Source: Candidatus Micrarchaeota archaeon
GTDB lineage: Archaea; Iainarchaeota; Iainarchaeia; Iainarchaeales; JAGVWC01
Direction of reading: 5' to 3'
Assembly (NCBI GenBank): GCA_043803815.1
Contig: JAZDJR010000029.1
Coordinates: 11,632 to 75,631, forward strand
Length of the DNA stretch: 64,000 bases
Position numbers and translations under genes: made by a program. Shown piece by piece: positions 8,124 to 62,146 of the stretch. The notes below the pieces were generated by a model, which made no database searches, was not told the DNA's origin, and saw only the letters and a program-made list of their open reading frames with translations. How positions within the stretch are numbered: the first letter of the stretch is position 1; every line of letters begins with the position of its first letter.

Positions 8124-8252
8124 GGACCTGTAGCCTAGCCTGGATAGGGCACCTGCCTTCTAAGGCTTTTTCTTCAAAAGAAAAACCCTGGAAAAAGAAC
8201 AGGGAACGTCAAGGCGAGCAGGGGGTCGTGGGTTCAAATCCCACCAGGTCCG
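8124..8252 (+). tRNA. tRNA-Arg(TCT) with 54-nt intron at 37/38 (8163-8216)
   Basis: Acceptor stem ggacctg/caggtcc, anticodon stem cctgc/gcagg, anticodon TCT at 8159-8161, T-arm GGTTCAAATCC. Confidence 0.93.
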
Positions 8253-8313
8253 CTTTATTTTTCCACTAGTGCTGGTGAGCTGGCTGATTAAATTAGGAAA
8301 GCTTTGAAAAAAT

Positions 8314-8358
8314 AAAAAAAGGGGAAACCGTTTTTTGGTTTCCCCCCTCCTTTTTTTT
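8314..8358. terminator. Possible bidirectional hairpin terminator between convergent tRNA-Arg and ORF 8372-9538
   Basis: 9-bp stem ggggaaacc/ggtttcccc flanked by an A-run and a T-run. Confidence 0.6.
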
Positions 8359-8371
8359 GTTGGAGTTTTTT

Positions 8372-9538
8372 TTAGGAGGATTGGTTTTCTATATACAGCG
8401 AATCTATGAGAGTCAAGGGCTGCGAAGCCGAAGAGGAGGTTTCGAGCTCCGCTTGGGTTACCGTTCCCTCGACCGTGCTGGTTGGAGTGAACCAGTTTAG
8501 GATGGGTGTCTTGTTGGGAACCTGGTATTTCACGGTGTAACCCACGCTTCCGTCCGCGTTCACCTTGGGATTGATTTCAAGTTCGTTTCCAAGATTGGAC
8601 TTGGTGGCCCAGTCGATTCCCTGGTTTTTTACCATCTTATTGAAAACCGCGTCCCGGATTTTTTCCACGGGAACGAATGATTTTTCCTGGGTACTCGTGT
8701 TTTTGACCATGGGCAATCCATTTTCAACCCCGATTTCGGTGTTGGTTGTGAATGGCTGGACCATGATTCTGGCCTGGTTCGTGACCACGGTGTCCGCTGA
8801 AACCGATTGGATGGCAATATTGCTTCCGCCGGTTACGGTTGGAGGGATTACTCCTGGGTTGCTCGGGGTTGTTGAAATACCTTGGCTTGAGGTCGTTGGA
8901 ATTGGCATTGGAAGCGCTTGGGGCGTTAATGCCAAGAGTTTTTCAAGGCGGCTAACCCGGTTTTCCAGAAAATTGGTTCGCTGTTCCAAATAATCTAGGC
9001 GCTCCACGAGTTTCGTGACGAGCTGCCTTAACCCCTCGCTATCGAGGTTCATGTTGCTGGGAATTTTTCGGAGAACCGCGGCTGTAGAGGTCGTGGATTG
9101 GACCTGTTCGGTTGTTGCGGAATTTCCGGCCTGGCATTCGTTGTATACTTTGATGGATGCCAGGTGATTGCCTCCGCATTCCTTGCTTCCGGTTGGGTTT
9201 TGCGCGCAGAAATTGCTGCAGGCTTCTTCGCCGTACTGTTTCCACAATTTCGTGGGCTTGCACGAGGATTCACTGCCGTCTTTTATAGCATCGCCGCTAG
9301 CGCAAATGTAATAGGCATAGCGGAAATTGCCGGGCAGGATTTGTTCGGTACCGGCGCCGTCGGTTTGCCCGCTTCCCGTTGCAATGGGGACGGCTATTCC
9401 GCCTCCCCCGCCTTGGGCGGTTTCGGGTGCATTATTGCCGGCCGCGCTGTTTGCGTTAGGACTGTCGGCAAAGGCAGCGATTCCAAGAGCTACCAGGCAA
9501 ACAAGGATTGCCAGTGCTCCAAAAAGGTTTTTTTTCAT
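8372..9538 (-). CDS. Secreted/surface hypothetical protein
   Basis: N-terminal signal peptide, Cys-rich domain, coiled coil, Thr/Ser/Pro linker; ggaggtg RBS. Confidence 0.8.
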   Translation of the reverse strand: MKKNLFGALAILVCLVALGIAAFADSPNANSAAGNNAPETAQGGGGGIAVPIATGSGQTDGAGTEQILPGNFRYAYYICASGDAIKDGSESSCKPTKLWKQYGEEACSNFCAQNPTGSKECGGNHLASIKVYNECQAGNSATTEQVQSTTSTAAVLRKIPSNMNLDSEGLRQLVTKLVERLDYLEQRTNFLENRVSRLEKLLALTPQALPMPIPTTSSQGISTTPSNPGVIPPTVTGGSNIAIQSVSADTVVTNQARIMVQPFTTNTEIGVENGLPMVKNTSTQEKSFVPVEKIRDAVFNKMVKNQGIDWATKSNLGNELEINPKVNADGSVGYTVKYQVPNKTPILNWFTPTSTVEGTVTQAELETSSSASQPLTLIDSLYIENQSS

Positions 9539-9644
9539 AGGCGGTTCACCTCCAAGTGAACAAAAGAATTTGTTAGGGATTGCGTTGGAACGCTTTAAAA
9601 GGATTGGCTGGAACCAAATGAAACCAAACGAAAAAGAAGCCGAT

Positions 9645-10517
9645 TCACTTGTTCTTGAACCATTCCGTCAAAAAAACCTTGTTGGAATAGCCGTCCTGCA
9701 CCAGGCGGAGCAATTGCTTTTGCTCCAGGTTTTTTAGGGTGCGCGACAAGGTGGCCTTGCTGTAACCTGTTTTCTGGTTCAATTGCTTTTGGGTCAAGCC
9801 GTCGGTTTCCAGCACAAGTTCCATTATTTTTTTTTCCTTTTCGCACAAGGTGCGGCAAATTTCGGTCTTGGCGTCCGAAACCGGTGTTGCTGAAGCCTGA
9901 ACTTGGACGGTTTTTGGCGGAATTTTTTTCGCGCGCATCCAAAAAAAGCCCGCTGCCAAAACAAGTACAATGGCTACAGCTAAAAGCCAGGAAAAGTCAA
10001 TCGCGGGTTTTTGAGGCAAAAGTTCGTATTCCAAAAGGACATGGCGGCTGGATAATGCGAATTGGTCCCATTCCGCCAAAAGGCCCTGGTTTTGGAGAGA
10101 AACATTGGCCAACGGTTCAAAACGCGTTATTTTGGATTCTCGCGGCAATGCGACTTCGATTCTGGAAACAGTCGGAGAAATATTGGATAGGTCCAGTGTC
10201 CATTTTTCGCGGTTTTTTCCGGTCAAAGAAGGGGATAAATATCGAAGAAGAATTTCGGACGCGTTGTTTGGGTTTGCAATCGAAACCTCCTCGCCGTTTG
10301 TTTCAAACAAAATCGCCTGGCCGTCGGCCAGAATCGAAATTTCCGCGGCCTTGGAATCCAAAAGCGTTACGCGGATTTCTTCACCGCTTTGCGGCAGAAT
10401 TTGGTGTTCCACCTGCGCAAAACCTGCGGAACTAATTTGGATATGAATTTCCTGTGAAAAAGCCAAGGCGTTTGCCGCCAAAAAAAGAACCCCAAACGCA
10501 AAAAAGGCTTTTTTCAT
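9645..10517 (-). CDS. Membrane protein with extracellular domain and C-terminal winged HTH
   Basis: Signal peptide MKKAFFAFG, one TM helix, GLTQKQL..YSKATLSRTLKNLEQK HTH; start placed at ATG 10517. Confidence 0.8.
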   Translation of the reverse strand: MKKAFFAFGVLFLAANALAFSQEIHIQISSAGFAQVEHQILPQSGEEIRVTLLDSKAAEISILADGQAILFETNGEEVSIANPNNASEILLRYLSPSLTGKNREKWTLDLSNISPTVSRIEVALPRESKITRFEPLANVSLQNQGLLAEWDQFALSSRHVLLEYELLPQKPAIDFSWLLAVAIVLVLAAGFFWMRAKKIPPKTVQVQASATPVSDAKTEICRTLCEKEKKIMELVLETDGLTQKQLNQKTGYSKATLSRTLKNLEQKQLLRLVQDGYSNKVFLTEWFKNK

Positions 10518-10685
10518 GGTAGCAAAGTGGTTGCTTTTTCTTAAAAGCGTTGGCATTTGCAAAGGCTCTCGCTTGGCTGCCCAAGGCCAAAGAAAATATT
10601 TTTTCTTCGTGTTGCGGATTTCGGAAAAATCGCCTTTGGCCAATCGCCTGGGTTTCGGGGTTCAAGAGTTGGACATTTAATTTTT

Positions 10686-11399
10686 TCAGCGGTTTCTCGG
10701 AGCCATGCGATTGATTCTTCGGGTTTTTTTTGGGGCGACACGGATTTGAGAATTGGCAAATGCCCGGAGCCGTTTCCACGCATTCAACACGGCCAAAGAC
10801 GGAACTTTTTTGTAGACATCGGGAAAAGAAACCAGCGGCATTTTTCGAAACGCATGCAAAGCGGGCCGAAACCGTGGCGAAAGGCGATTTTTTCCAATGG
10901 TTTTTTTTTCAAGCGATTTTAAGAATTCTTCCTGCTTAAGCGACTCCGGAAACGGCAAAGCCGCGCTTTTTTGGTGCTGATTTCCGCTTTGCATTCTTCG
11001 AATCGCGTCCTCCAAAAAAAATCCTTTTTCCCGAATCAAATAGCCCGCAAGCATGGCTCCGACTCTGCCGTTCCCGTTGGTGCAATGCACCAAAACCCGC
11101 TGATTTTTTTGTTCCAATCGATTTAAAATCCCGCAAAAAAGCTCGAATTCTTTTTTAGTCGGAACCCCGTGGTCGGCCACGGGAATTTGAAACCAGGCAA
11201 GCCCGTTTTTTTTCATTTCATTGCGGAACCCGCGGGCGCCAATGTCGACGTTTTCCAATTCGTCGTCGGTCAAAAGCGTAATCACCGTTGAAATTTTGCG
11301 TTTTTTGATTTCGCGGATTTGTTCCGGAAAAAAAGGAATCGCGGAAGCGGCCACCAGGTTTCCCAGTTCGGGAATGAGCCTAAAATTGTTCAGTTCCAT
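10686..11399 (-). CDS. Dual-specificity/tyrosine protein phosphatase family protein with basic tail
   Basis: VLVHCTNGNGR (CX5R) and IPVADHGVP. Confidence 0.88.
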   Translation of the reverse strand: MELNNFRLIPELGNLVAASAIPFFPEQIREIKKRKISTVITLLTDDELENVDIGARGFRNEMKKNGLAWFQIPVADHGVPTKKEFELFCGILNRLEQKNQRVLVHCTNGNGRVGAMLAGYLIREKGFFLEDAIRRMQSGNQHQKSAALPFPESLKQEEFLKSLEKKTIGKNRLSPRFRPALHAFRKMPLVSFPDVYKKVPSLAVLNAWKRLRAFANSQIRVAPKKTRRINRMAPRNR

Positions 11400-11508
11400 A
11401 CTCTACTTTTAGGCCAAAAGGTAAAAAAATGGTTGGCTGGCCCGGCGGGTTTGGTTTTCGAACTCCGAATTCTTAAAAGCCGCCGAACCGTTTTGATGAT
11501 TGATGACT

Positions 11509-11733
11509 ATGCAAGAACCCCTGTTAAAAGACTCGTTAAAAGAAATGGTGAACCGCCAAAACGACGTTAACCACTCGATGCGGCGCGTCGCGTTCCAGCT
11601 CGACCAGTTCCACATTCTGATGGAACACGCGCACAAGCACCTCGCGGTTCGCGGAGAAGGCGCGGAAATCCGAATCAAAGGAAGAACCTTCAAACGCCAG
11701 CAAAACAGCGTTCACCGCGTCAAAAACAACTGA
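11509..11733 (+). CDS. Small hypothetical protein
   Basis: 74 aa ORF fills the gap between opposite-strand genes. Confidence 0.55.
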   Translation: MQEPLLKDSLKEMVNRQNDVNHSMRRVAFQLDQFHILMEHAHKHLAVRGEGAEIRIKGRTFKRQQNSVHRVKNN

Positions 11734-11744
11734 TTTTCCTTATT

Positions 11745-12398
11745 TTATTTTCTTTTCCGCAATTTCGTAACACTTTTGGCGACTAATCTGGCCTTTCTTT
11801 TCAAAAAATTCGGATTGAAAAGCTCGAGCGGAATCCGGCTTTGGCCAAGCTTTCTTTTCCGACCCGCCAACTGCATTCCAATCGTGCGAACCAGCCCGGC
11901 TTTTTTAAAAGCGTCGATGACTTTTTGCTCGTTGTTTTTGAATTCCTGATGCCGCGACTGAACGGCTTCTTTTGTTTCCGGCCTTCCCTCGCGCTGTTTT
12001 TGCCTTCTATCCGCAACCCAAATCGGAATTTTAAATTCCAATAATCCGCCAACCCGAAAGCCCCGTGCATCGACAAATTGCCGAAATTTTTCCAAGTCCT
12101 CCTTTTTTCTTGGAAAACCGTCGATAATAAAGCCGTTTTGGAAACGCTGCGGATTTTCGGCAATGGCTTTTTCCATGAACTGAAAACTATACTCGGCGGG
12201 AAAATAAACTCCCTTGGCCATCCAGTTGGAAACCACGTTTTCGGCAACCGGGTCTTTTTTTTTGGCTTGTTCGCGGATGTATTGCCCAAGTTCAATGACC
12301 GGCAAACCCGTCAATTTGCTGACCAAAGGACCGGTTTCGGTTTTGCCGGCTCCGCCGCGACCTAAAAAAACAAAAACAGGCGGCTTTTTAGGATTCAT
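11745..12398 (-). CDS. Adenylate kinase-family nucleoside monophosphate kinase
   Basis: P-loop GRGGAGKT and GFIIDGFPR; basic C-terminal extension. Confidence 0.85.
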   Translation of the reverse strand: MNPKKPPVFVFLGRGGAGKTETGPLVSKLTGLPVIELGQYIREQAKKKDPVAENVVSNWMAKGVYFPAEYSFQFMEKAIAENPQRFQNGFIIDGFPRKKEDLEKFRQFVDARGFRVGGLLEFKIPIWVADRRQKQREGRPETKEAVQSRHQEFKNNEQKVIDAFKKAGLVRTIGMQLAGRKRKLGQSRIPLELFNPNFLKRKARLVAKSVTKLRKRK

Positions 12399-12429
12399 AC
12401 TCAAATCTTGTTTCAACAAAACTTAAAAC

Positions 12430-12478
12430 AATAGGCCGTTTGCTTTGCATCGGCCAAAAACCGCAAATGCGGCCTATT
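12430..12478. repeat. Intergenic inverted repeat
   Basis: 9-bp stem aataggccg/cggcctatt. Confidence 0.55.
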
Positions 12479-12482
12479 TTCG

Positions 12483-13043
12483 TTAAATCCTTTTGAACGT
12501 TGTTTTGGGCAATGTTTTTTTGAGGCTGGTTTGAAACTTTTTGAGCACTGCGGAAGAGCCCTGCACAATCATCATGTTTGAAAACGGGTCCATAATGTCA
12601 ATCAGCAATCGCTTGGACGAAAACTGGATATTGCAGAAAAAAACGTCAAACAGCAGGTTATAATCCTCCAAAACCGCGGAAACGTTTTTGGAATTAACCG
12701 TTCCATGAGCCGAGGTCTTTTGCTTTTTGTCATACGCCGAAGAATACGATTTTAATCCGTGGCTCTTGCAAAACTGCCGAAAAATCGAATCCAAGACTTT
12801 TGGCGCAACGCTCAAATTGGAATACACCAGATTCAGCGGCTCTAACCGCTCCAGCACAACAGCCATGCGAAACTCGCCGGTCTTTTCCAGAACCGGTTTA
12901 AAATCCTGCAGCAAAAAATCGTACAACTGCGGCGTCGCATCCTTGGAAACCCCGAAATTAACCGCCAAAAAAGATTTTTCGGATTTTGGCGCAGCTTTTG
13001 GTTTTAAGCGTTTTATTCGGCGTTTTGTCCCCTTGTTTTTCAT
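12483..13043 (-). CDS. Hypothetical protein
   Basis: 186 aa ORF with ATG start. Confidence 0.7.
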   Translation of the reverse strand: MKNKGTKRRIKRLKPKAAPKSEKSFLAVNFGVSKDATPQLYDFLLQDFKPVLEKTGEFRMAVVLERLEPLNLVYSNLSVAPKVLDSIFRQFCKSHGLKSYSSAYDKKQKTSAHGTVNSKNVSAVLEDYNLLFDVFFCNIQFSSKRLLIDIMDPFSNMMIVQGSSAVLKKFQTSLKKTLPKTTFKRI

Positions 13044-13076
13044 ACGAAAGTATTTATTTTACGACTTAATATTAGT

Positions 13077-15669: not shown

Positions 15670-15675
15670 GGGCTA

Positions 15676-19342: not shown

Positions 19343-21559
19343 TTAAGCGCTAAATAATTCCTCTATTTTTTGTTTTGCTTCGAATCTGCCGAGTGTGGGG
19401 CCGTGTTGTTTGTAGGCGTTTCTTAGGCTGTTTTGGGTTACGATGAAGTACCATTCTTTGTATTTTTTGAGTCGTTCGATTTTTTCCTGTAATTCTTGGG
19501 GGTTGTGGAAACTGTTTCCGGTTTCGATTTCAAAGGCAATTGTTTTTTCTTTGGCGACAAAGACGAGGTCGGCCTGTTGGACTGCGTTTCGCGCTACTTT
19601 GTCCGTGTGTTTTTGGATTTCTTCGTATAGTAATTGGGCTAGGAATTTGTGGTCAATGGATTCGTTTTCTGGGTGGGGGTTTATCAGGTATGCTCTGGGT
19701 CCGCCTTGTTCCAAGCCCATTTGCTTTGTTTCCAGGTATCCTGCGCTTTTGAGGAATTCGATTTGTTTGTCGTTTAATTCCGAAACGGGGTAGTGCTTTT
19801 TGCTTAGCGTGTAGACTTCTTCGCTTAGGTCCTCATTTTCCAATAGTTTTTCGCGTAGGATTTCTCTTTTTCGTAGTTCTTCTGGGTTTGTGGTGATGAT
19901 GTCGTATTCTTTTTCCGATGCAAGGACTTTGATGGGCAATCGGTCGTTCATGGCGAATAATAGTCCTTCTCCTTTTTCTGCGGTCAGGATGAAGTTTTTT
20001 TCTTCTTTGTTTAATCCGAATTTTTCGGTTATTTCGATTGAAACCGCTGGGTCCTGCCGGAGTAACAGTTTCCATGCTGTGTTGGCGAGAATTGTGTTTC
20101 CGGCGGGGCTGTTGAGCAGGTCGTTTACTTCTTGGGTGATGATGACGAGGCCTGCGCCGAATTTTCGGGCTGTTTTGCATATTTTGAATAGGTATTCGGC
20201 GTGTTCTCCGTGTCGCAGTAATTGCCATGCTTCGTCCACGACGATGATTTTTCTTTCGCGGTCTTTTTGGGTTTTTTCATAAATAAAATCCAAAACCAAA
20301 AACATTAATGCCGGTTTTACCTGGTTAGGCATTTCCTTGATGTTAAAAGAAATCAGTTTCTTTTCCAGATTCAGGCTGGTTTGCTTGTTCATGAACGAGA
20401 AGCTGCCGTGTGCGTAAATTTGCAAGCGATTGAGCAGGGCGTCGTAGGTCATTTTTTCGATTTGGCTGGCTTTTCGCGCGTTTTGCTCTAATACTTCGAA
20501 TAGGTCGCTTAGGACGGGTGGTTTTTGTTTCCATGTTTCCGGGCTATTGGGGTGAATTCCCTTGTTTTTGTAGGTTTGAATCAGAGCCTTGTCTAATGTG
20601 TTTTTTTGTACTTCGGTCAGTTCGCCGAACATTATCCGGAACAAATCCATAAGGGACAACAGTTTGTCGCCGAAGTCGCGTCCCATCAAGTCCAATGGAT
20701 TGATGATTGTGTCGGAATCGCGGGAAATATTTACGAGTTGGCCGTCATATTTTTGGCACAAGTCGGAATATTCGCCTTGCGGGTCGATGATGTAACTTTG
20801 CGTGTTTTTCAACAAGTTCCGGATTAGGTATAGTTTGACAAAAAAGCTTTTTCCGCCGCCGCTTGAACCAAGGACTAACCCGTTGTAGTTGGCGAAGTCG
20901 TATTGGTTCAAAATGATTGGGATATTGTTGTTGATGTTTACGCCGAACATTACGCCGTCTTCTTTCAAATCCAAAAATGAGGAAGTAAACGGAAAACAGG
21001 CCGCCAATGGACTGCTTGGAATGTTTCTTTGGATGCGGAGCTTGTCCTGTGCGATTGGAATAATGGATTGCAAGGCCTGTTGCATGCGAAAATAGGGTGT
21101 TTTTGGGATTATCATCATCGAGTTTAATTCGGATTCGATTTTTCGGGTTGCCAAATCCAATTCCGGCTTGTCAAAGGCGCGCGCGTTAACGTAAAAACTC
21201 AAATTGAACAGTTTTTCCTCGCCGGTCTGCAGGGATTGCAGGGTTTTGTAGGTGTCGTCATACTGGACCTTCAAGGAAGGATTGACGATTCCGCGGGTTT
21301 CCGAGGCTAATATGTCTGATTTTTGCTTGACAAGCTCTTGGTTCAGTTTTCCCAAAATCAATTCGATTGATGCGGGTTCCACGTGCAGGGATAAGTCAAA
21401 GTTTCCTTCGCTTGAAACGATTCGGTCCAGCCATCCTTCTTGTATTGTGCGCGGGTAGCCTACTGCCATGACTATTCGGTTATACGTGTCATTTATCTGA
21501 ATCGAATCCGGCTCGTTGTTGACATAGGACGGTTTCAACAATTTTTCTAAACAGAACAT
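19343..21559 (-). CDS. virB4: VirB4-like type IV secretion ATPase
   Basis: Walker A GSSGGGKS, IIDPQGEY, Walker B IVVDEAW, ARKFG..ITQ; C-terminal extension with AFEIETG. Confidence 0.9.
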   Translation of the reverse strand: MFCLEKLLKPSYVNNEPDSIQINDTYNRIVMAVGYPRTIQEGWLDRIVSSEGNFDLSLHVEPASIELILGKLNQELVKQKSDILASETRGIVNPSLKVQYDDTYKTLQSLQTGEEKLFNLSFYVNARAFDKPELDLATRKIESELNSMMIIPKTPYFRMQQALQSIIPIAQDKLRIQRNIPSSPLAACFPFTSSFLDLKEDGVMFGVNINNNIPIILNQYDFANYNGLVLGSSGGGKSFFVKLYLIRNLLKNTQSYIIDPQGEYSDLCQKYDGQLVNISRDSDTIINPLDLMGRDFGDKLLSLMDLFRIMFGELTEVQKNTLDKALIQTYKNKGIHPNSPETWKQKPPVLSDLFEVLEQNARKASQIEKMTYDALLNRLQIYAHGSFSFMNKQTSLNLEKKLISFNIKEMPNQVKPALMFLVLDFIYEKTQKDRERKIIVVDEAWQLLRHGEHAEYLFKICKTARKFGAGLVIITQEVNDLLNSPAGNTILANTAWKLLLRQDPAVSIEITEKFGLNKEEKNFILTAEKGEGLLFAMNDRLPIKVLASEKEYDIITTNPEELRKREILREKLLENEDLSEEVYTLSKKHYPVSELNDKQIEFLKSAGYLETKQMGLEQGGPRAYLINPHPENESIDHKFLAQLLYEEIQKHTDKVARNAVQQADLVFVAKEKTIAFEIETGNSFHNPQELQEKIERLKKYKEWYFIVTQNSLRNAYKQHGPTLGRFEAKQKIEELFSA

Positions 21560-21988: not shown

Positions 21989-22915
21989 TTATTTCTTTGT
22001 TTTGGCGTTTTGAATAAGCGTCAATTCTCCGAGGTATTGGTTTTTTGTTTCCAAAAATTCGTCAAAAAAAGCCGCCATTAAACTCAGTAATTCGTCGTTT
22101 TCGAGCCGTGCGCTTAGCAAATTGCTTTTTTTGAGTTTTTGCTGGCAGAGCTTGACGCGGATTTCCAATTGCTGTAACGAGTTTTGCTGGTTTATTTCGT
22201 AACTGGTTTTCTTTTTTTGTTTTGAAAAGAGGTTTTGCAATCCGATGATGCAGTCTTGCAGGGCCTTGGTTTTGCTGGTCGGCGAATAGGGGATTACAAC
22301 GTAGAATTGCCTGTTTTTAACTTTTTTTTCGCCGATGTGGTTTTGGACGAATTCTTCAAAAGAGCCGAATTGCTCCAAAATCTTGGGGTCTTTGGTTTCC
22401 AATGCCTGCAATTCAAGTTTTTTCAAATAGTCCGACAGATTCAGGTTGATGGTTCGCATGACTATTTGGACGGAAAAGTCCAGGGAGTTCAAAAATTCCT
22501 TGTAGGCTTGGATGATTGCTTCCTGTTCGGTCTTGGATAGCATGTGGAAATTCAATGGCATTATTTGCAGGATTGCCCGGATTGAACCTTCTTTCAGGTA
22601 GACCACGTTTTTTTCGATTTTTTTGATTCCAACCAATTGCTCAAGTTTTGGGTCAAAGTAGCCTGCTCTTTTGATGCTTTTGTGAAAAACCCAAATCTCT
22701 TTCACACGGTCAAATAACCCAAAGAACGCGAATCCTGTTCCAATGCCCATGAATGGCAGGGCAATCAGGAAGCGGACGGTCAAATCGAATGGTGCGCGGA
22801 TAAGGATAATCGCGCTGATGATTCCAAACACGCCAATCCACAGTAATTGTTCAAACGTCAGGTTGAACATGATTTTTTCCTTATACTGCAAGTTGGACGG
22901 GATTTCGTAGGCCAT
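21989..22915 (-). CDS. PrgI-family (VirB3-like) conjugation membrane protein
   Basis: MAYEIP..KEKIMFNLTFEQ, two TM helices, FLNSLDFSVQI, RQFYVVIP. Confidence 0.8.
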   Translation of the reverse strand: MAYEIPSNLQYKEKIMFNLTFEQLLWIGVFGIISAIILIRAPFDLTVRFLIALPFMGIGTGFAFFGLFDRVKEIWVFHKSIKRAGYFDPKLEQLVGIKKIEKNVVYLKEGSIRAILQIMPLNFHMLSKTEQEAIIQAYKEFLNSLDFSVQIVMRTINLNLSDYLKKLELQALETKDPKILEQFGSFEEFVQNHIGEKKVKNRQFYVVIPYSPTSKTKALQDCIIGLQNLFSKQKKKTSYEINQQNSLQQLEIRVKLCQQKLKKSNLLSARLENDELLSLMAAFFDEFLETKNQYLGELTLIQNAKTKK

Positions 22916-50617: not shown

Positions 50618-50745
50618 GACTGCAAAAAACACCGCTAATTTTTTGTTCTTTCAAAGAATGACTGCTCCCCGTTCTAAATAGGGAAATATCCGAAGCTTGA
50701 CCTGGAAAATACCTTAAAAAACCGATTCAACCCAATTCTTGCATT

Positions 50746-50798
50746 GCGGAGATGGCTAAACCTCAGCTTTTTGCTTTGGGCAAAAACCTGGGAAAAAG
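50746..50798 (+). repeat. Duplicated tRNA-Ser 5' end fused to a hairpin-repeat copy
   Basis: gcggagatggctaaacct matches 50818-50835 at 17/18, then cagctttttgctttgggcaaaaacctgggaaaaag resembles the tRNA intron. Confidence 0.85.
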
Positions 50799-50817
50799 CA
50801 GCTCTGAAAAATTTGAT

Positions 50818-50956
50818 GCGGAGATGGCTGAACCTGGTTAAGGCGCACGCCTGGAAACTCAGCTTTTTTGCTTTCAGCAAAAAACCTGGGAAAAAATTGT
50901 TTAGCCCGTGAGCGTGTGGGCGAAAGCCCTTGTGGGTTCAAATCCCACTCTCCGCG
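50818..50956 (+). tRNA. tRNA-Ser(GGA) with 54-nt intron (50857-50910)
   Basis: Acceptor gcggaga/tctccgc, anticodon stem cacgc/gcgtg, variable arm gggcgaaagccc, GGTTCAAATCC. Confidence 0.93.
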
Positions 50957-55961: not shown

Positions 55962-56876
55962 TTATTTATCGCTTTTTTGGTTCGCCGGACTTGCAGCCGG
56001 AATTGTTTTTTGCCGCAACCGCTCGTAATTCTCGTCGGCCTTTTTTTGGATTTGGATTATCATTTCCGGCGTCAAATGCGAAAAGCGCTTTTGGCCGTTT
56101 AAATAATCCGAAACCGGCTGTCCGCTTTTCGGGTCAAAGTTCAGTTTGAAATTTCCGTTTTCGATTTCAAACAAAAACCACATGCGCGACTGAACCGCGG
56201 CTTTGGCGATTTGCATCGAGCGGCTTCCGTCAAAGCCCGCTCCGAGGCAGCACGGCGCATGAATCACAATAAAGCGGGCTCCTGTCATAGCTTGGGCTTT
56301 TTTTAATTTGAAACGCAAATCCGCAGGATACGCGACCGAAGCGCTTGCCGAGTATGCAATGTTGTGTGCGGCGGCAATTTCCGCAATCGGCTTGCGCTGT
56401 TTTTCGTTTCCATTATGAACAGAACCTGCTTGGGACGTGGTGGTAACCGCCCCAAATGGGGTTGCGCCGCTTTTTTGGACTCCGGTATTCGCGTATTGCT
56501 CGTTGTCATAGCAAATGTACAGGACATCGTCGTTGCGGTCAAACATTCCAGATAACGCCGCAAAACCGATGTCATAGGTCGAACCGTCTCCCGCAATGCA
56601 GACCACGGTCGTGTGGTCGTTTCCCTTGGCTCGCAAGGCGGTACTGACTCCGCTTGCAACCGCGGGAACGTTTTCAAACAAAGTGTGAATATACGGAACG
56701 CGCCAGGCGCTTTGGGGAAACTGCGTGGACGTGATTTCCATGCAACCTGTGGCATTCACGATGATAATGTCGTTTCCCAAAGCATCCAGAATCTGGATTA
56801 ACGCGTTGGACGGCGCGCAACCGGGACAGCCCGCGTGGCCGGGAGCATATAAGTGCATGTCGCTTTGCTGGCTCAT
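55962..56876 (-). CDS. porB: Pyruvate:ferredoxin oxidoreductase beta subunit
   Basis: GHAGCPGC, ATGCMEI, AGDGSTYDIG, DNEQYANTG. Confidence 0.93.
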   Translation of the reverse strand: MSQQSDMHLYAPGHAGCPGCAPSNALIQILDALGNDIIIVNATGCMEITSTQFPQSAWRVPYIHTLFENVPAVASGVSTALRAKGNDHTTVVCIAGDGSTYDIGFAALSGMFDRNDDVLYICYDNEQYANTGVQKSGATPFGAVTTTSQAGSVHNGNEKQRKPIAEIAAAHNIAYSASASVAYPADLRFKLKKAQAMTGARFIVIHAPCCLGAGFDGSRSMQIAKAAVQSRMWFLFEIENGNFKLNFDPKSGQPVSDYLNGQKRFSHLTPEMIIQIQKKADENYERLRQKTIPAASPANQKSDK

Positions 56877-58021
56877 TTTTTTGCCTCGGTTTTCTTGCCA
56901 ATCCATTCGGAGATTGGTTCTTTGGTTTTGAGTTTGTCAAACAATACTGCAATGTCTTTGCGCTTGAGATTTCTTCCGCCGAGGCAACCATAAAAACTGG
57001 AAACAATTGTCCCTGTGCCTTGCAATGCTTCCGCAACTTCAACGTACAACGGCGCTTGGGCTCCGAGTGATAACGCGCGGTCAATCACTCCGACTTTTTT
57101 TCCTTTCAAAACTCGCGCAAGTTCTTCGCTTGGAAACGGGCGATAGCATCGCAAGTGCAAACACCCGACTTTTTTTCCTTTTTTGCGGAGTTCTTCAACG
57201 GTTGCCTTGGCATTATCCATGGCGCTTCCAAGTCCAATCAAAACGATTTTCGCGTCCTTGACATGGAATTCCTCGAACAATCCGTAGGAACGCTTGAATT
57301 GTTTTCCGAATAGTTTTCCAACTTCGAAAATCGTTTTTTTGGATGCAATCAAATCGTTGTGCAGGTCTTCGCGGAATTCCTGGTAATATTGCGGAGCGGT
57401 ATAGGCTCCCAATGTAATTGGGTTTTCAGGGTCGAGTTTAAAGGCGGGCTTAAACGCCGGCAAAAACGATTGGGTTTCTTTTTGGCTGGGAACATCCACT
57501 TGTCCGACCGCGTGCGTCAAATAATGGCCGTCCAGGCACACCATTACGGGCAGATTGGTTTTTTCCGCGATTTCAAAGGCTTGAATGGTGTTGTCCACGG
57601 CTTCTTGATTGTTTTTGCAGTATAATTGTATCCAGCCGGTGTCTCGCTGGCTGATGGAATCCTGTTCGTCGTTCCAAATGGATAATGGCGCGGAAACCGC
57701 GCGGTTAGCAACCGCCATGACAACGGGCAATCTCAGTCCCGCAACCGCAAACAGCGCTTCGTGCATTAATAAGAGTCCCTGCGAGGAAGTCGCGGTAAAG
57801 CTTCGGGCACCTGCCGCGCTTGCGCCCATGACCGCGCTGATGGCTGAAAATTCGGATTCAACTGCGATAAAATTCTTGATTTCGCCGTTGGCAAAAAACC
57901 GGTCCATTTCTTCCACAATCTGCGTGGCAGGAGTAATGGGATAGCAGGCCACGACTTCGGGCCGGCAGTTTTTCGCGGCTTCGGCAACCGCTTCGTTTCC
58001 ACTAATCGTTTTGACGACCAT
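56873..58021 (-). CDS. porA: Pyruvate:ferredoxin oxidoreductase alpha subunit
   Basis: SGNEAVA, YPITP, ESE, ATSSQG, NRA. Confidence 0.94.
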   Translation of the reverse strand: MVVKTISGNEAVAEAAKNCRPEVVACYPITPATQIVEEMDRFFANGEIKNFIAVESEFSAISAVMGASAAGARSFTATSSQGLLLMHEALFAVAGLRLPVVMAVANRAVSAPLSIWNDEQDSISQRDTGWIQLYCKNNQEAVDNTIQAFEIAEKTNLPVMVCLDGHYLTHAVGQVDVPSQKETQSFLPAFKPAFKLDPENPITLGAYTAPQYYQEFREDLHNDLIASKKTIFEVGKLFGKQFKRSYGLFEEFHVKDAKIVLIGLGSAMDNAKATVEELRKKGKKVGCLHLRCYRPFPSEELARVLKGKKVGVIDRALSLGAQAPLYVEVAEALQGTGTIVSSFYGCLGGRNLKRKDIAVLFDKLKTKEPISEWIGKKTEAKK

Positions 58022-58023
58022 TT

Positions 58024-58236
58024 TCAGTTCCCCTTTTTTGCAACCAGCGAACCGAGCAGGTAGCCAAATAACGCAAAAAGTGCAAAAGAAATAACTAAAA
58101 TAGATAATGCCTTTAGCGCGTAATCGGAAGGCGGTCCTAATAGCATTAACAATTCGTTCAATATTCCAAATATTCCTCCGACAACCAGTCCGTATAACGC
58201 GAATTTTTTATTAGTTTCATTAAGTTTGAAATTCAT
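58024..58236 (-). CDS. Small two-TM membrane protein inside the por operon
   Basis: 70 aa; 2- and 4-bp gaps to neighbours. Confidence 0.7.
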   Translation of the reverse strand: MNFKLNETNKKFALYGLVVGGIFGILNELLMLLGPPSDYALKALSILVISFALFALFGYLLGSLVAKKGN

Positions 58237-58240
58237 CTTT

Positions 58241-58495
58241 TCACCTTTTTTCTGCTTCTCGTTCCATCTTGATGCATTTTACGGGGCATTCGACCGCGCA
58301 AATCCCGCAGCCCTTGCAATAATCCAAATCAATAACCGGAATTTCTTTTGGGGTTCCCATGATTCCTTCGGGGCAAAAATTTTGGCAGATTCCGCATTTA
58401 ATGCATTCTTTAGCATCCACTTTAGGCTTGTCAACACTCCATTTTCCGGTCTTGTTGACAACGGTTGTTCCCGGCTTTGCAATCGCGAATTTCAT
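58241..58495 (-). CDS. porD: Pyruvate:ferredoxin oxidoreductase delta subunit
   Basis: KTGKW..KP, CIKCGICQNFCP, DLDYCKGCGICAVECP. Confidence 0.93.
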   Translation of the reverse strand: MKFAIAKPGTTVVNKTGKWSVDKPKVDAKECIKCGICQNFCPEGIMGTPKEIPVIDLDYCKGCGICAVECPVKCIKMEREAEKR

Positions 58496-59037
58496 TTTTT
58501 TTCACCGCTTGTTTTTTCAAAGCATTCCTGAACGGCTAAAATGTTTTGGGACGCGATTGTTGAGGGAAAGCGGCTTGAAATCGCTTTTTTAATGCTCTCG
58601 ATTTTTACGATTCCGGTTATTTTGCACAACGCCCCGAGCATTACGGTGTTGGTAATCGGTTTTTTTAGATATTTAACCGCGATTTGAGTTCCATCCACGA
58701 TGAAAACAAAATTGCTCTGCAGATTCAATTCTTTTTTAGGCTGATTTGAGTTCACAATCAGTTTTCCGGTTTTTTTCAGCCCAGCTTCGACTGAAACTTC
58801 CTGCAAAACCGACGGCTCGGCAACTACTATGATATCCGGCTCGTTTATTTCCTCATGAATCGCAATCGGCTTGGAATCGATTCGGCAATAACTGGTAACC
58901 GGCGGCCCGCGTTTTTCCGAGCCGAAAAAAGGCATGGCCTGGCTAAATTTTCCTTCCAAAGCCGCGGCTTCGGCCAAAAGTTCGGCAGCGGTAACGATTC
59001 CCTGTCCCGCCCGTCCATGAAAACGAATTTCAATCAT
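58492..59037 (-). CDS. porC: Pyruvate:ferredoxin oxidoreductase gamma subunit
   Basis: MIEIRFHGRAGQG, FGSEKRG.PV, NTVMLGA; start at ATG 59037. Confidence 0.93.
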   Translation of the reverse strand: MIEIRFHGRAGQGIVTAAELLAEAAALEGKFSQAMPFFGSEKRGPPVTSYCRIDSKPIAIHEEINEPDIIVVAEPSVLQEVSVEAGLKKTGKLIVNSNQPKKELNLQSNFVFIVDGTQIAVKYLKKPITNTVMLGALCKITGIVKIESIKKAISSRFPSTIASQNILAVQECFEKTSGEKK

Positions 59038-59058
59038 TGCATTTCCTCTTGGAACTTT

Positions 59059-59170
59059 CTTTTTCTCGAGCTTTTTTGCACGACGCAAAAAAGGCTGCTG
59101 GAAGCATTTTTTTTCCCAGGCTTTTTTCCGCAGAAAAAAGGCTGCGGCCATGAAAACGAATTTCTAGCAT
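59059..59170 (-). repeat. Two hairpin-repeat copies preceded by a duplicated porC 5' end
   Basis: 59144-59170 reads MLEIRFHGR, 23/27 nt identical to 59011-59037; repeats at 59107-59144 and 59059-59097. Confidence 0.85.
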
Positions 59171-59252
59171 AATTTTATTTAATCTTAAAAATTTTACAGT
59201 GCAATTCTCACTGCAATTCTATGACCATTGCCAAAAGCACTATTTAAACATA

Positions 59253-59266
59253 TTGACAATTGTCAA
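59253..59266. promoter_or_regulatory. Perfect 14-bp palindrome upstream of the por operon
   Basis: TTGACAATTGTCAA next to a TTTAAATA TATA-like box on the minus strand. Confidence 0.55.
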
Positions 59267-59303
59267 AGGAAATGACGGCGATTAACGTAAACCTGTTTTT
59301 GGG

Positions 59304-60503
59304 TTAATTTCCGAACCGGATGGCGTCTACGGGGTCCAATTCGGCTGCGGTTTTGGCGGGCAAAATGCCGGACAATAATCCGACCAGCATGGAAAAGCCG
59401 ACGGCAAATAAAATCGTGGCCAAAGATACCGTGACGGGCAATTCGAATCCTGCCAAAGTTGCTATGATAGATGCCAATTTTGCCAATCCGATTCCAAGAA
59501 CGGTTCCGATGACTCCGCCGACTAATCCCAAAAGGATTGCTTCGGTAATGAAAATGGAAAGAATTCTGGAATCGGTTGCGCCAATCGCTTTCATGATTCC
59601 GATTTCTTTGGTGCGCTCCGACACCGACATAAACATGGTGTTCATGATTCCTACCGCGCCGACCAAAAGCGAAATCAGGGCAATGCCGACCAAAACGACC
59701 TGAACAAGGCCGATGACGCTTCCCGCGGTTTCGCCGACCTGCTTTGCGCTTAACACCTGAAAATCTTCCTTGCTATGGCTGCGTTTTAAAATGCGCGAAA
59801 TGCGGTCTTTGGCGTCATCCAATCCGACGCCGGGAAATAATTTGACAAAAACCCGGTTGGGCAATACTTTTTGGCCGGTAACGGTTTCCAATGTTCCGAT
59901 GTTCATGATAACCGCTTCATCAAACATGCCGCCGACAAACGTGTTCGCGGATTCTTTGGTGGTTCCGACCACCTTGAGTTTTTTTCCGTTGACTCCAAGC
60001 GAACTGGTCACATGAATAGGCCGCTTGAATTTTTCTTCGGAAAGTTTCGGTCCGATCATAATGCCGGTTTTATCCTGACTGTTCAAATAGCGCCCTTCTC
60101 CGAGAGAAACGATTCCCGAACCGCCCAGTTTGAGCATCTTGTCGGCATCCAGACCGATAGCCATAATGGTTTTTTTTTCGCCCTTAAATTCCACAAAAAC
60201 CGTTTGGATAGCCAGTTCCGCGGCAAAGTCGACTCCGCGGACGCTTTGAATCGTTGCAACATCGCCGCTTTGAAGCTTGACAAAAGCGGAATCCGTAAAG
60301 TTTTTTCCCGGCAAAACAATCAAGGTGTCGGTTCCGAGCGATTCAAACTGGCTTTGCACCGAACTGGTCAATCCTTCGCCAAGCGAAATCAGCGCAATGA
60401 TGGCGGTAATTCCCAAAACAATTCCCAACACCGTCAGGTTGCTGCGAAATCCCTGCCCCCGAAGATTTCGAACCGCGGTTTTGATGGTTTCCAAATCAAA
60501 CAT
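59304..60503 (-). CDS. MacB/FtsX-family ABC transporter permease
   Basis: RSNLTVLGIVLG, GIMNTMFMSVSERTKEIGIMKAIGA, LDPVDAIR. Confidence 0.92.
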   Translation of the reverse strand: MFDLETIKTAVRNLRGQGFRSNLTVLGIVLGITAIIALISLGEGLTSSVQSQFESLGTDTLIVLPGKNFTDSAFVKLQSGDVATIQSVRGVDFAAELAIQTVFVEFKGEKKTIMAIGLDADKMLKLGGSGIVSLGEGRYLNSQDKTGIMIGPKLSEEKFKRPIHVTSSLGVNGKKLKVVGTTKESANTFVGGMFDEAVIMNIGTLETVTGQKVLPNRVFVKLFPGVGLDDAKDRISRILKRSHSKEDFQVLSAKQVGETAGSVIGLVQVVLVGIALISLLVGAVGIMNTMFMSVSERTKEIGIMKAIGATDSRILSIFITEAILLGLVGGVIGTVLGIGLAKLASIIATLAGFELPVTVSLATILFAVGFSMLVGLLSGILPAKTAAELDPVDAIRFGN

Positions 60504-60507
60504 ACAA

Positions 60508-61773
60508 TCACTCGTACCGAATCGCTTCAACGGGGTCCAATCCGATTGCTTTTTCCGCGGGAGCAACTCCCGACACGACCCCTAAAATAAACGAAAACAA
60601 CACCGCTCCTATCAATAAAACCGGATTAAGGACAAACGCCAGTTCAAATCCCGCATTGGCCGCCAATCGGGTTACAATCCAGGCCAAAATAACGCCGAAC
60701 CCCGTTCCAATCGCCCCTCCAATGGCTCCGACAATGCCGGCTTCCGCCAAAAAAATGCTGCGAATCAATTCGTCGGTCGCGCCGATGGCTTTCATCGTCC
60801 CGATTTCGCGGGTCCTTTCGGTAACCGCCATAAACATGGTATTCATGATGCCGATTCCGCCCACCAAAAGCGCAATCGCCGTAATCGCGACCACAAAAAT
60901 CTGAATCACGCCCAAGACCTGCACCGCGCTGGTCAGAAGGCCTTCCGTGGTAAAAACCGTAAAATTCTTTTCGCCGTGATCGCGTTCCAAATCCTGCTCG
61001 ATTTTTCTGGCAACCTCGCTTACATGCTCTTTTCCCGTCACTTTAACCGCAAATTCCGCCGGGTCTTTTTCACCCAAAAAATCCTTGACGACATTCTGGC
61101 TGGTGTAACCCATATTGAAAAAACCGAACGTGCCAAAACCCATGTCGGATTGCTTGGAAATGCCCACAATCTTGAATTTTTTCCCGTTGATTTCAACGCT
61201 TTGCCGCAATTTTAAATCGCTTGAAAATGCGTCCGTCAAAAAATTGTCATACACCACAAGCGCGTACTGGTCGTTGTCCGTCAAAAATCGCCCCTGGGAC
61301 AGGTCCAAAAACCCGATTTCTTCCATGTACTCGAAATCCTCGGGCAGTAACCCCATAACCATCAGGCTTATTTCCTCGTTTCCTTTTTTGGCAATCACGC
61401 TGGTTTCATAAAAAGGAATGACTTTTTCAACAAACGGAATGCGTTCGATGATTTTCTGGTCGTTTTCGGAAAGCTTGGAAAACATGGTTGCCGACATGGT
61501 TCCGCCGGGCTCGACAAAAATATTGTTCAGTCCGAGCCCCTCAAAGGATTGCTGTATCGAGGCATTCAATCCTTCACCCACCATAAATAAAGTGACAATC
61601 GCCGCAATGCCGATGACGATTCCTAACAAGGTCAGATTGCGGCGCAAGGCCTGGTTTTCAAGGTTTCGAAAAGCAACCGCCGCGATTTCCGGATTGGTAA
61701 TCACATGGAAAAAAGTCCGCAACACCAAAAAAATCAGGCGAAACGGATATGACACCTTGGAAACCAAAGACAC
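60508..61773 (-). CDS. MacB/FtsX-family ABC transporter permease (tandem paralogue)
   Basis: LTLLGIVIG, GIMNTMFMAVTERTREIG, LDPVEAIRYE; start uncertain. Confidence 0.92.
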   Translation of the reverse strand: MSLVSKVSYPFRLIFLVLRTFFHVITNPEIAAVAFRNLENQALRRNLTLLGIVIGIAAIVTLFMVGEGLNASIQQSFEGLGLNNIFVEPGGTMSATMFSKLSENDQKIIERIPFVEKVIPFYETSVIAKKGNEEISLMVMGLLPEDFEYMEEIGFLDLSQGRFLTDNDQYALVVYDNFLTDAFSSDLKLRQSVEINGKKFKIVGISKQSDMGFGTFGFFNMGYTSQNVVKDFLGEKDPAEFAVKVTGKEHVSEVARKIEQDLERDHGEKNFTVFTTEGLLTSAVQVLGVIQIFVVAITAIALLVGGIGIMNTMFMAVTERTREIGTMKAIGATDELIRSIFLAEAGIVGAIGGAIGTGFGVILAWIVTRLAANAGFELAFVLNPVLLIGAVLFSFILGVVSGVAPAEKAIGLDPVEAIRYE

Positions 61774-62076
61774 GAATTATCCCTCTGTTGCTTGAAAATA
61801 ACACCGCAAACTATTAAGGAATAGCGTTTCATTGGCAACCATATTTTTATGGAAAAAAACGCGGATAAAAAGCAAAGCAAAAAATTTCACCACTGTTTCA
61901 AATCTGGACTGAAAAGGCTTCAGAATAACCGTCCAAAAACGGATAACCGAACAGTTTTTCGGACAATCCCAGCCCCCTTTACCCGGCAAAGGCCAGCACT
62001 CCAGAATATAGGTGTTACGATTTTTGTATCGCTTTTGGCATAAAGTTATACTGTTTTAGTATCACTTTAGAAAGGT

Positions 62077-62146
62077 TTATTTGCTTTCCAAGAAAACTTT
62101 GTTTCGCGGCTTTTTGCATTACGGCAAAAACCCGGGAAAAACTTCG
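62077..62146. repeat. Recoded duplicate of the aminopeptidase 3' end plus hairpin repeat
   Basis: 62077-62100 encodes KVFLESK* on the minus strand, as does 62147-62170; repeat cggctttttgcattacggcaaaaacccgggaaaaac at 62107-62142. Confidence 0.85.

Follow-up and report, generated by a model that had tools for sequence, protein, structure and literature searches.

A DNA repeat of about 40 letters that forms a hairpin, here termed E, occurs as an order-wide family in DPANN archaea of the Iainarchaeum/AR10 group. E is inserted DNA, and it probably represents a very small non-autonomous hairpin insertion element which has partly been domesticated around tRNA genes. The family is wider, and more closely tied to tRNAs, than an earlier note on this DNA had recognized.

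For the detection of E a covariance model (R1) was established from 37 copies. In the window, i.e., the whole analyzed stretch of 64,000 nucleotides (its coordinates are those of contig C29 minus 11631), R1 matched exactly six E copies and no others, which are the six described in the earlier note. The copies and their host genes are:

8124..8252, plus strand: tRNA-Arg(UCU), interrupted at the canonical position by a 54-nt intron (Rfam RF00005, 54.3 bits; anticodon read from the sequence)
8161..8204, plus strand: E, 5' part of the tRNA-Arg intron, clamp beginning directly after position 37 (R1, C29:19792-19835, 50.5 bits)
50745..50763, plus strand: shortened second copy of the 5' end of tRNA-Ser, adjoining the following E on its CAGC side (score 17, p 0.0025 in the control)
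50762..50805, plus strand: E upstream of tRNA-Ser (R1, C29:62393-62436, 49.3 bits)
50818..50956, plus strand: tRNA-Ser(GGA) with a 54-nt intron (Rfam, 42 bits; ARAGORN intron (40,54))
50858..50903, plus strand: E, 5' end of the tRNA-Ser intron (R1, 56.1 bits)
58492..59037, minus strand: porC-like gene (pyruvate:ferredoxin oxidoreductase gamma), real start ATG at 59035-59037 (Pfam POR, 2e-40)
59052..59099, minus strand: E nearer to the real porC start, hexamer CTCGAG (R1, 44.9 bits)
59102..59146, minus strand: E, distal at porC, CAGC side abutting the displaced porC start (R1, 57.2 bits)
59145..59170, minus strand: displaced duplicate of the porC start, 23/26 identical to 59012-59037
62078..62100, minus strand: second, displaced copy of the terminal codons of the aminopeptidase gene
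62105..62149, plus strand: E in antisense orientation relative to the aminopeptidase gene and 5 nt beyond the stop codon of that gene (R1, 48.4 bits)
62147..63640, minus strand: M18 aminopeptidase gene, real 3' end at 62147-62170 (Pfam Peptidase_M18, 1.2e-89)

Position 37/38 was confirmed for both tRNA introns of the window (Rfam, ARAGORN). Their length of 54 nt, already given in the earlier note, follows from the 56 nt between two Rfam consensus positions in each tRNA; ARAGORN with introns allowed likewise reported 54 nt for tRNA-Ser(gga), and in default mode it detected no tRNA in the window. The E hairpin of the tRNA-Arg intron is visible in the predicted fold, and in that of the tRNA-Ser intron the clamp CUCAG/CUGGG is predicted to pair beside a 3-nt bulge. 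The four copies outside of introns stand between duplicated termini, as had been claimed: the tRNA-Ser 5' end (50745-50763 versus 50817-50835, 18/19 identical), the porC start (23/26) and the aminopeptidase end (62078-62100 versus 62148-62170, 19/23). The displaced porC start is located behind a promoter-like region common to relatives and opens a 46-codon frame, which crosses both E copies and stops 5 nt inside porC. The displaced aminopeptidase end encodes the same residues followed by a stop; it differs from the real one by 5 synonymous changes only, and a relative of about 90% identity carries the version of the displaced copy.

E is an imperfect, strand-specific palindrome. It consists of a CAG/CTG clamp whose C-C mismatch is constant, T-run and A-run arms and a variable inner stem, followed by GG-A5-GAAAAC; the A-rich tail lies outside the palindrome and is likewise strand-specific. 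In some families E is joined to a second hairpin, the two forming a composite of 80-95 nt headed by E. The pairing is under strong covariation. Within the alignment 98% of 395 cells are paired, and both sides have changed in 53 cells compared with 12.8 +/- 3.9 in shuffles (0/500 shuffles reach 53), which bears out the earlier statement that the stems differ and stay paired. The clamp changed jointly from CAGC/CCTGGG to CGGC/CCCGGG in seven rows, and the first A-run has the length of the T-run in 41/47 copies. No two copies in this genome have the same inner stem; none was therefore copied recently from another. On a tentative reading, the palindrome may have been rewritten repeatedly, both arms together, which might point to arm-to-arm templating instead of stepwise mutation.

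That E is inserted DNA is seen from filled and empty sites. The porC start is uninterrupted in all 20 relatives' loci where it was found. The L1|L10 junction is compact in three sister genera and is interrupted and duplicated in this genome and one other family. Two presence/absence insertions were detected within a single genus (g60): one element is found in genome G115 only (locus L113, ~1842-1933), between a TAA stop and a T-run, and another (locus L115) is present in G115 and absent from G127 and G144, the site not being recovered in G102. The neighboring genes are intact in filled and empty genomes alike, and no target duplication was found at these two filled/empty pairs. The dispersed repeat of the earlier note thus behaves as inserted DNA, and the empty sites it had proposed to look for exist at porC, at L1|L10 and at both g60 insertions.

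The distribution of E is strongly biased toward tRNA genes, since 15 of the 24 curated copies are located inside or no more than 100 nt from such a gene, compared with 0.23 expected. Six curated copies reside in canonical tRNA introns and begin at the 5' splice site, and all intron copies examined in this genome and in relatives' loci are at the canonical position. E forms a part of these introns, not the whole: their 3' part is specific to each tRNA, and in tRNA-Arg(UCU) of a sister genus (L025) the short intron at this position lacks E. Taken together, these three observations indicate that E occupies existing introns; the idea that it could be a source of archaeal tRNA introns was not supported. 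The predicted folds suggest that the clamp of an intron copy would supply the helix beside the bulge at the 5' splice site. In the tRNA-Ser(UGA) intron the place of E is common to two or more genera, probably to three. Retention at one intron place across genera would be explained equally well by a host function. None of the 15 strict copies was found within a long reading frame, in line with the suggested survival at harmless places only; E sits where an interruption is tolerated or useful.

The placement bears directly on an alternative in which E is a host signal, such as a terminator or an RNA-end or processing hairpin, that was spread passively by local duplication or recombination and is not selfish. 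The T-run of E starts 4-7 nt past tRNA 3' ends in this genome and, in 7/20 sampled copies of genus g60, 2-9 nt beyond the TAA that ends a long open frame, positions that would fit an archaeal oligo-T terminator. A signal would also account for a hairpin preserved by covariation in nearly all copies, for the intron position shared between genera and for an order-wide family without a transposase tracking it. On the other hand, genus-mates with filled and empty sites have intact neighbors either way, and 96/151 genomes of the order lack detectable E in the same covariance-model scan that found the others. Moreover, E occurs inside tRNA genes in both orientations (antisense in two tRNA-Ser introns) and, in one operon, in the gap from L1 to L10, a place at which termination would be harmful; these copies argue against strong termination. 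Further copies are located upstream of gene starts and flanked by duplicated starts. We regard this alternative as rather unlikely.

Duplicated termini are a frequent companion of E. With a threshold set at the 99th percentile of 2000 random placements (flanking local-alignment score >= 13), a flanking duplication was detected at 21/55 scored copies (~40%) versus ~2% of random placements. Both associations for which the earlier note had proposed a check, with tRNA introns and with gene termini, were found. The duplications are imperfect, comprise 16-62 bp of a gene or tRNA terminus, vary in length and are absent at other copies; targets include porC, adenylate kinase, a lipoyl protein, L1|L10 and several tRNAs. 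In 16/16 loci with one truncated copy, the truncated duplicate abuts the CAGC side of E. Between duplicated coding termini 18/27 differences fall on codon position 3, and 15 codons differ synonymously versus seven non-synonymously. This pattern is not what would be expected if a fresh duplicate simply decayed (p ~0.025 against 0.46). "Rebuilt gene end", the expression of the earlier note, is apt as a description of these termini. Given the clean filled/empty pairs without duplication, the long duplications may arise by a separate process.

The termini could also be read as attL/attR-like repeats left by larger, integrase-driven elements, with E as the remnant. Repeats of 16-62 bp at tRNA 5' and 3' ends and at gene ends have the size of att cores, and they are mismatched; according to PMC3293823, mismatches of this kind are inherited from attP and attB. 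The bias toward codon position 3 and the match of the displaced copy to the relative's version would fit an imported foreign terminus as well. This reading is nevertheless improbable: only ~40-100 nt, namely E and a short tail, separate the repeats, with no integrase gene among them, the targets are too diverse for a site-specific integrase, the same short remnant would be required every time, and clean insertions without a repeat exist.

No transposase family was found that tracks E or is common to all E-rich genomes, which are 78-93% complete, so that absence is not proven. In the five E-rich genomes studied first, each of DDE_Tnp_1, Y1_Tnp, RVT_1 and Cas1 is lacking in two or more, TnpB is present in 2/14 high-copy genomes, and no IS4-family gene tracks E. 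Y1_Tnp occurs in 24/55 E-positive and 19/96 E-negative genomes, a weak link confounded by kinship; genomes G003 and G011 contain many E copies and no Y1 match. Among eight Y1 loci in high-copy genomes one has an E ~500 nt away and the others none within 2 kb. E is absent from the ends of IS200/IS605 elements, and its hairpins are unlike those of the resident IS200/IS605 copies.

An RNA route, by which an excised, E-headed tRNA intron is ligated into transcripts and copied back to DNA, is very improbable. In sense intron copies E does start 0-1 nt past the 5' splice site (read by eye), and several duplications begin near expected transcript starts. However, a reverse transcriptase was found in only 1/5 E-rich genomes, the copies at 3' termini and in the two tRNA-Ser introns mentioned are antisense to the transcript, and no convincing bulge-helix-bulge was detected at non-tRNA copies by a motif scanner that recovered known splice sites poorly.

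The scan with a covariance model, proposed in the earlier note, yielded 25 copies in this 1.08-Mb genome (Iainarchaeum/AR10-like) and E in 55/151 genomes of the order (E-value <= 1e-4, 41 candidates scored per genome). In relatives the copy number reaches at least 37 matches among these 41 candidates. Near-identical copies occur in G011 and G003, and likewise in G115 and G127. A 16-mer core of E was found in 10/61 genomes, and the reversed-pattern control was 0 in all. The comparison with 60 shuffles preserving homopolymer runs, also suggested previously, came out differently for two motifs: the strict motif is clearly enriched (n=15 versus a mean of 0.60, maximum 3), whereas the generic form of the earlier note occurs 52 times versus 24.4 +/- 5.6, about twofold, about half of these loose matches being noise in a genome with ~7,000 runs of T5 or more. 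Although the loose count alone would be compatible with chance in a genome full of T- and A-runs, such an origin is ruled out, to near certainty, by the strict motif, by the 16-mer core (12 versus 0 for the reversed control), by the strong covariation of the arms and by the concentration at tRNA genes.

If E is an insertion element, as we consider probable, it would be copied in as single-stranded hairpin DNA and not by a classical cut-and-paste transposase, the likeliest process being template switching or another hairpin-dependent replicative step. The replication step may enter E at the GC-rich CAGC end and exit at the A-rich end. Copying of this type would result in variable or no target duplication, and entry at the CAGC end would place the truncated copy always on that side. 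Selection would then retain only insertions leaving both neighbors functional; at termini two copies of the piece of 16-62 bp are present, which leaves the gene intact. Some copies, in tRNA introns and trailers, may be old and kept. A more far-reaching version is tentative and possible at best: palindromes without a transposase of their own might copy themselves via the hairpin, with tRNA introns and trailers as safe harbors, and arrivals at gene ends might bring along a second, sometimes foreign, terminus. If so, E at gene termini would mark one-sided recombination junctions between diverged lineages.

Several consequences arise from these results. Duplicated termini may represent insertions rescued by target duplication and, if the third-position bias holds, would mark recombination between diverged DPANN lineages. 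A selfish hairpin may be recruited as part of a splicing substrate. For annotation, E gives rise to spurious starts upstream, causes default finders to miss tRNAs and breaks assemblies.

Among known systems, E resembles miniature inverted-repeat elements (MITEs) in being short, non-coding, multi-copy (25 here, up to at least 37 in relatives), lineage-restricted, hairpin-forming and mostly outside genes, with bursts of near-identical copies. It differs in its length of ~40 nt, far below the usual size, in having no target duplication of fixed length (none at the two clean sites, 16-62 bp or absent elsewhere), in its strand-specific tail outside the palindrome and in that genomes 78-93% complete yielded neither an autonomous relative nor a matching transposase. 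For palindromes derived from IS200/IS605, insertion without target duplication and a hairpin near each end would be expected. E has no duplication at the clean sites, and the g60 composite contains two hairpins; these hairpins are unlike those of resident IS copies. REP elements with RAYT in bacteria are imperfect palindromes of 20-40 nt behind genes, with a conserved short 5' word and a structure that is kept, and E is alike in palindrome, position, 5' word and kept structure. In contrast to REP, the 5' word of E belongs to the stem, E occurs in tRNA introns and in archaea, and no single-copy Y1 gene is flanked by it (eight Y1 loci, one with a copy within ~600 nt). Rickettsia palindromic elements are palindromic repeats tolerated at delicate places, yet E does not occur as an in-frame part of proteins. 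Insertions of the IS1634 type generate direct repeats of very variable length, but no IS4-family gene tracks E.

In Sugahara et al. (2012; PMC3293823), truncated tRNA 5' fragments upstream of full tRNAs are described as mismatched direct repeats linked with intron content, and integration is proposed for tRNA-Thr of Caldiarchaeum, with 1.8 kb and a recombinase gene between the repeats. Compared with the elements described there, E loci have ~40-100 nt between the repeats, and starts and ends of protein genes are also targeted. The route by which archaeal tRNA introns arrive is still presented as open in a 2026 preprint on Asgard tRNAs. For Thermoproteales, transposition of tRNA introns is reported (Fujishima et al., 2010, as cited in PMC4033280); there, as with E, introns of different tRNAs within one order contain similar sequences. 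What the introns have in common in the case of E is a defined hairpin module, and this module is also present away from tRNAs, downstream of genes and flanked by duplicated termini; the intron copies examined are all at the canonical position. With its filled and empty sites in ~50 genomes, E is one recognizable module whose entry into and exit from tRNA introns, the flanks of tRNAs and the ends of genes can be traced, and it suggests that intron content can be mobile while intron position stays fixed.

All six copies of a hairpin repeat of about 40 nt, here called E, which an earlier note had claimed for the window, are present in the sequence as it had described them:

8161-8204, plus strand, E in the tRNA-Arg intron
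50762-50805, plus strand, E upstream of tRNA-Ser
50858-50903, plus strand, E in the tRNA-Ser intron
59052-59099, minus strand, E before porC
59102-59146, minus strand, E before porC
62105-62149, plus strand, E after the aminopeptidase gene

The 54-nt introns assigned to both window tRNAs agree with Rfam, which places the tRNA genes at 8124-8252 and 50818-50956, each with an insertion in the anticodon loop. ARAGORN reported the 54-nt intron of tRNA-Ser(gga) when introns were allowed and detected neither window tRNA in default mode. The window corresponds to C29:11632-75631 of the assembly G000, which comprises 1.08 Mb in 36 contigs with 46.6% G+C, 85.6% completeness and 1.3% contamination.

For the anatomy of E an alignment of 37 copies from five genomes was established. 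After 2-3 variable bases come CAG, C and a run of 4-8 T (the T-run), then an inner stem-loop whose sequence is free, and after this an A-run, C, CTG, GG and A5+, the tail often continuing with GAAAA(C). CTG is the partner of CAG across a constant C-C mismatch, and the hexamer of the earlier note is thus the 3' half of an outer clamp. The stems are under structural constraint: 98% of 395 alignment cells are paired, and changes on both sides of a stem occur in 53 cells compared with 12.8 +/- 3.9 in shuffles, none of the 500 shuffles reaching 53. In seven rows CAGC/CCTGGG is jointly changed to CGGC/CCCGGG. The 47 regex-defined copies comprise 37 different inner segments, which form on average 2.57 consecutive pairs, compared with 0.82 after an exchange of arms among copies (at most 1.40 in 2000 trials); in 41 of the 47 the T-run and the first A-run are of equal length. 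All six frames are free of stop codons in 29 of 53 copies, compared with 15% of length-matched random segments.

T5+ and A5+ runs are very common in G000 (about 7,000 each), and matches to the generic form of the earlier note are therefore weak evidence: in 60 shuffles that kept every homopolymer run, 24.4 +/- 5.6 such matches arose compared with 52 in the genome. The strict motif, with the GC prefix and a CCYGGG-type hexamer, stood up to the same control (15 matches vs 0.60, shuffle maximum 3). A 16-mer core of E occurs 12 times in G000; its reversed control pattern was absent from all 61 genomes searched. A covariance model (R1) found at least 25 copies in G000 at an E-value of 0.01 or below, with 150 of about 4,000 first-look candidates scored. 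Within the same order, at least 55 of 151 sampled genomes carried an R1 match at an E-value of 1e-4 or below, with up to at least 37 matches per genome, and 96 yielded no match, 41 candidates being scored per genome. The E-rich families are f20, f23, f30 and f24. The element of g60, a genus of f20, is composite and 80-95 nt long: E is followed by GAG, another hairpin and either of two tails. E also forms tandem arrays with a 69-bp period, for example L001 (G011:C4:9300-9600), which contains a masked N run, and lies at contig ends (L006/L008), so that copy numbers from draft genomes are underestimates.

Copies of E cluster at tRNA genes. Among 24 curated copies in G000, six lie inside tRNA genes and nine more within 100 nt, i.e., 15 of 24, where random placement gives 0.23. 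The introns concerned are those of tRNA-Arg(UCU), Ser(GGA), Ser(UGA), Leu(UAA), Glu(UUC) and Glu(CUC). In sense intron copies of G000 and its relatives the clamp, read by eye, starts 0-1 nt past position 37. Predicted folds of the two window tRNAs would set the helix of the clamp beside a 3-nt bulge at the 5' splice site and pair the 3' part of each intron with its own anticodon loop; a bulge-helix-bulge scan around E was too permissive and missed known tRNA sites. The Ser(UGA) copy is antisense to the tRNA in G000 and recurs at the same place in G002 (tRNA by Rfam) and G003 (by eye only). Three copies in G000 begin 4-7 nt past a tRNA 3' end, and none of the 15 strict copies lies inside a long reading frame. 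Seven of 20 sampled g60 copies lie 2-9 nt past the TAA of a frame open to the locus edge, four occupy tRNA introns and one follows a tRNA. In two relatives a copy follows the end of porA (L050:4165-4202 and L059:4158-4193), a place that is free of E in the window.

The link to duplicated termini was measured as the best local alignment between the left flank (80 nt) and the right flank (100 nt) of each copy, with a threshold of 13, the 99th percentile of 2000 random placements. This score is reached at 10 of 24 regex-defined copies of G000 and at 11 of 31 scored copies of relatives, two of which (L007 and L020) are matches between neighbouring repeats and not gene termini. The flanking repeats measure 16-62 bp. 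Duplicated starts, comprising the first codons and the ribosome-binding site, belong to porC, a lipoyl-domain protein gene, adenylate kinase and an unnamed ORF with no match in Pfam; the last codons of the M18 aminopeptidase represent a duplicated end, and at tRNAs three 5' ends and two 3' ends are doubled. In all 16 loci with one truncated copy, the truncated duplicate adjoins the CAGC side of E. The intact gene lies beyond the A-rich tail at a distance of 0-27 nt, or further where other repeats intervene. Displaced gene starts were found at five places:

window 59030-59170, minus strand, displaced gene start
G000:C14 ~22160-22245, displaced gene start
G000:C24 ~19600-19680, displaced gene start
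L022, locus of a relative, displaced gene start
L016, locus of a relative, displaced gene start

In all five the frame from the displaced start crosses E and ends close to the first base of the real start, from 8 nt upstream to 5 nt downstream of it; read-through is partly expected, since E is without stop codons. These frames have 23-46 codons, end twice as an ATGA overlap and could permit translational coupling.

E might be read as a pure host signal; our reading is instead that of a non-autonomous insertion element with a hairpin, which has been partly domesticated at tRNA genes. Its insertion, its placement and the constraint on its structure are shown by the data, and the way in which it is copied is inferred. 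Empty orthologous sites, called for by the earlier note, do exist. In 20 of 20 loci of relatives with a findable porC start nothing interrupts the passage from a promoter-like region to this start (seven further loci had no recognisable start), and in G002 porC stands directly after the aminopeptidase gene. The DNA run X1 (contigs only) represents a relative about 90% identical and contains 7% of the sampled words; one of its contigs connects the end of the aminopeptidase gene with sequence upstream of the porC promoter and skips 59300-62156, the joint being weak with a 23-nt side. In the window aminopeptidase and porC are separated by two FtsX/MacB-type permease genes (59304-60566 and 60508-61773, minus strand). 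The pair is missing at this place in G002, and the X1 contig also appears to be without it. Inverted copies of E bracket this permease block (window 59300-62156), with the displaced gene termini on the inner sides.

The junction between the genes of the ribosomal proteins L1 and L10 is compact in three sister genera: the two genes overlap by ATGA in G003, stand 1 nt apart in G002 and are also compactly arranged in G001. At this junction E is inserted in G000 (G000:C36:9633-9720), where 16 bp are doubled, and in G011 of another family (L133, G011:C112), where 25 bp are doubled, in the same orientation; both repeat copies of the split junction are in use. Within g60 a site in L113 (~1842-1933), between a gene's TAA and a T-run, is filled in G115 and empty in G127, G144 and G102; a site in L115 is filled in G115 and empty in G127 and G144, the G102 site not being recovered. 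Neither of these two sites has a target duplication. At a further candidate, L113:~4725-4864, the alignment is too diverged for border placement. Another g60 site (L116/L128; G115:C1, G127:C6) is filled in both genomes with flanks 88% identical, and the inner stems are different yet perfectly paired (T5/A5 vs T4/A4). The three Ser(UGA) copies (G000:C8:31331-31379, L013, L021) likewise have different paired stems with matching T- and A-run lengths. Such differences at the same place suggest that the palindrome was rewritten whole, by replacement or arm-to-arm templating, and not by stepwise mutation.

Seven duplicated coding termini with 54 codons could be compared. Between the two copies there are 27 base differences, of which 18 fall on codon position 3, and the changed codons comprise 15 synonymous and seven non-synonymous ones. 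The position-3 share exceeds 1/3 (p = 0.0004) and is less clear against 0.46, our own estimate for one free and one constrained copy (p = 0.025). At the aminopeptidase end all five differences are synonymous, TAG vs TAA included. The corresponding end in the X1 relative (GAA AGC AAG TAA) differs from the displaced copy (GAA AGC AAA TAA) by one base and from the working copy (GAG AGT AAA TAG) by four, which suggests, for one locus and one short joint, that the working terminus was the incoming one and arrived with E from a diverged lineage.

None of the enzyme families searched (DDE_Tnp_1, Y1_Tnp, RVT_1, Cas1, TnpB) tracks E in these genomes, all of which are incomplete. In the first five E-rich genomes DDE_Tnp_1 was present in three, Y1_Tnp in two, RVT_1 in one and Cas1 in none. 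Across the 151 genomes Y1_Tnp occurs in 24 of 55 E-positive and 19 of 96 E-negative ones (hand tally), a link inflated by kinship; it is present in 8 of 14 genomes with at least 10 matches, and TnpB, by its zinc-ribbon domain, in 2 of these 14. None of five IS200/IS605 copies of G001 has E at its ends, and one of eight Y1 loci in high-copy genomes has E about 500 nt away, roughly as expected from copy density. A 4.8-kb contig of G000 carries a solo Y1 (IS200-like) transposase gene (G000:C21:1362-1838) and, 2.2 kb from it, three E-like units alternating with other small hairpins (G000:C21:4028-4169). This protein was rejected as mobiliser: in the 151-genome search its close relatives are multi-copy in G028, which is without E.

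Concerning the mode of copying, we favour that E would be copied in by a hairpin-dependent step such as template switching, because no enzyme was found, because target duplication is absent or of variable length, and because the truncated gene-internal copy is invariably next to the GC-rich end, and AT-rich sequence outside next to the A-rich end. Rival explanations would regard the sites as scars of integrase-driven integration, as described in PMC3293823, or E as mobile at the RNA level.

The earlier note had also proposed E as a possible source of tRNA introns, and here the outcome was negative: no E was found creating an intron at a new position. The tRNA-Arg(UCU) gene of G003 (L025) measures 96 nt; its intron at 37/38 is short and free of E. 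Upstream of this gene lie a 15-nt fragment of the tRNA 5' end and a copy of E, whose loop contains a copy of the intron's small hairpin. Introns of other G000 tRNAs contain other hairpin modules that are present in tRNA flanks too. Two further hairpin families, a second (stems of the type TACGTCGTCC...GGAC..CGGTA) and a third (AACC-T4-loop-A4-GGTT), occur both in tRNA introns and in tRNA flanks, so that module sharing is not limited to E. They are found at:

G000:C14:53737-53893, second/third hairpin families
G000:C23:13278-13425, second/third hairpin families
G000:C4 ~56540-56610, second/third hairpin families
G000:C29 ~7270-7350, second/third hairpin families

From the G003 intron, the hairpin copy in the E upstream of it and the shared modules it follows that E occupies canonical introns and exchanges with the flanks of tRNAs. 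A putative tRNA-Phe with an 866-nt intron was reported by ARAGORN at G000:C30:9017-9968.

A literature search on Iainarchaeum tRNA introns and on DPANN or archaeal miniature inverted-repeats, with supplements outside its scope, returned nothing on E or on Iainarchaeia repeats. Among known systems, intron sequences common to different tRNAs are described for the Thermoproteales in PMC4033280, and mobile elements are invoked for split tRNAs in PMC3218864.
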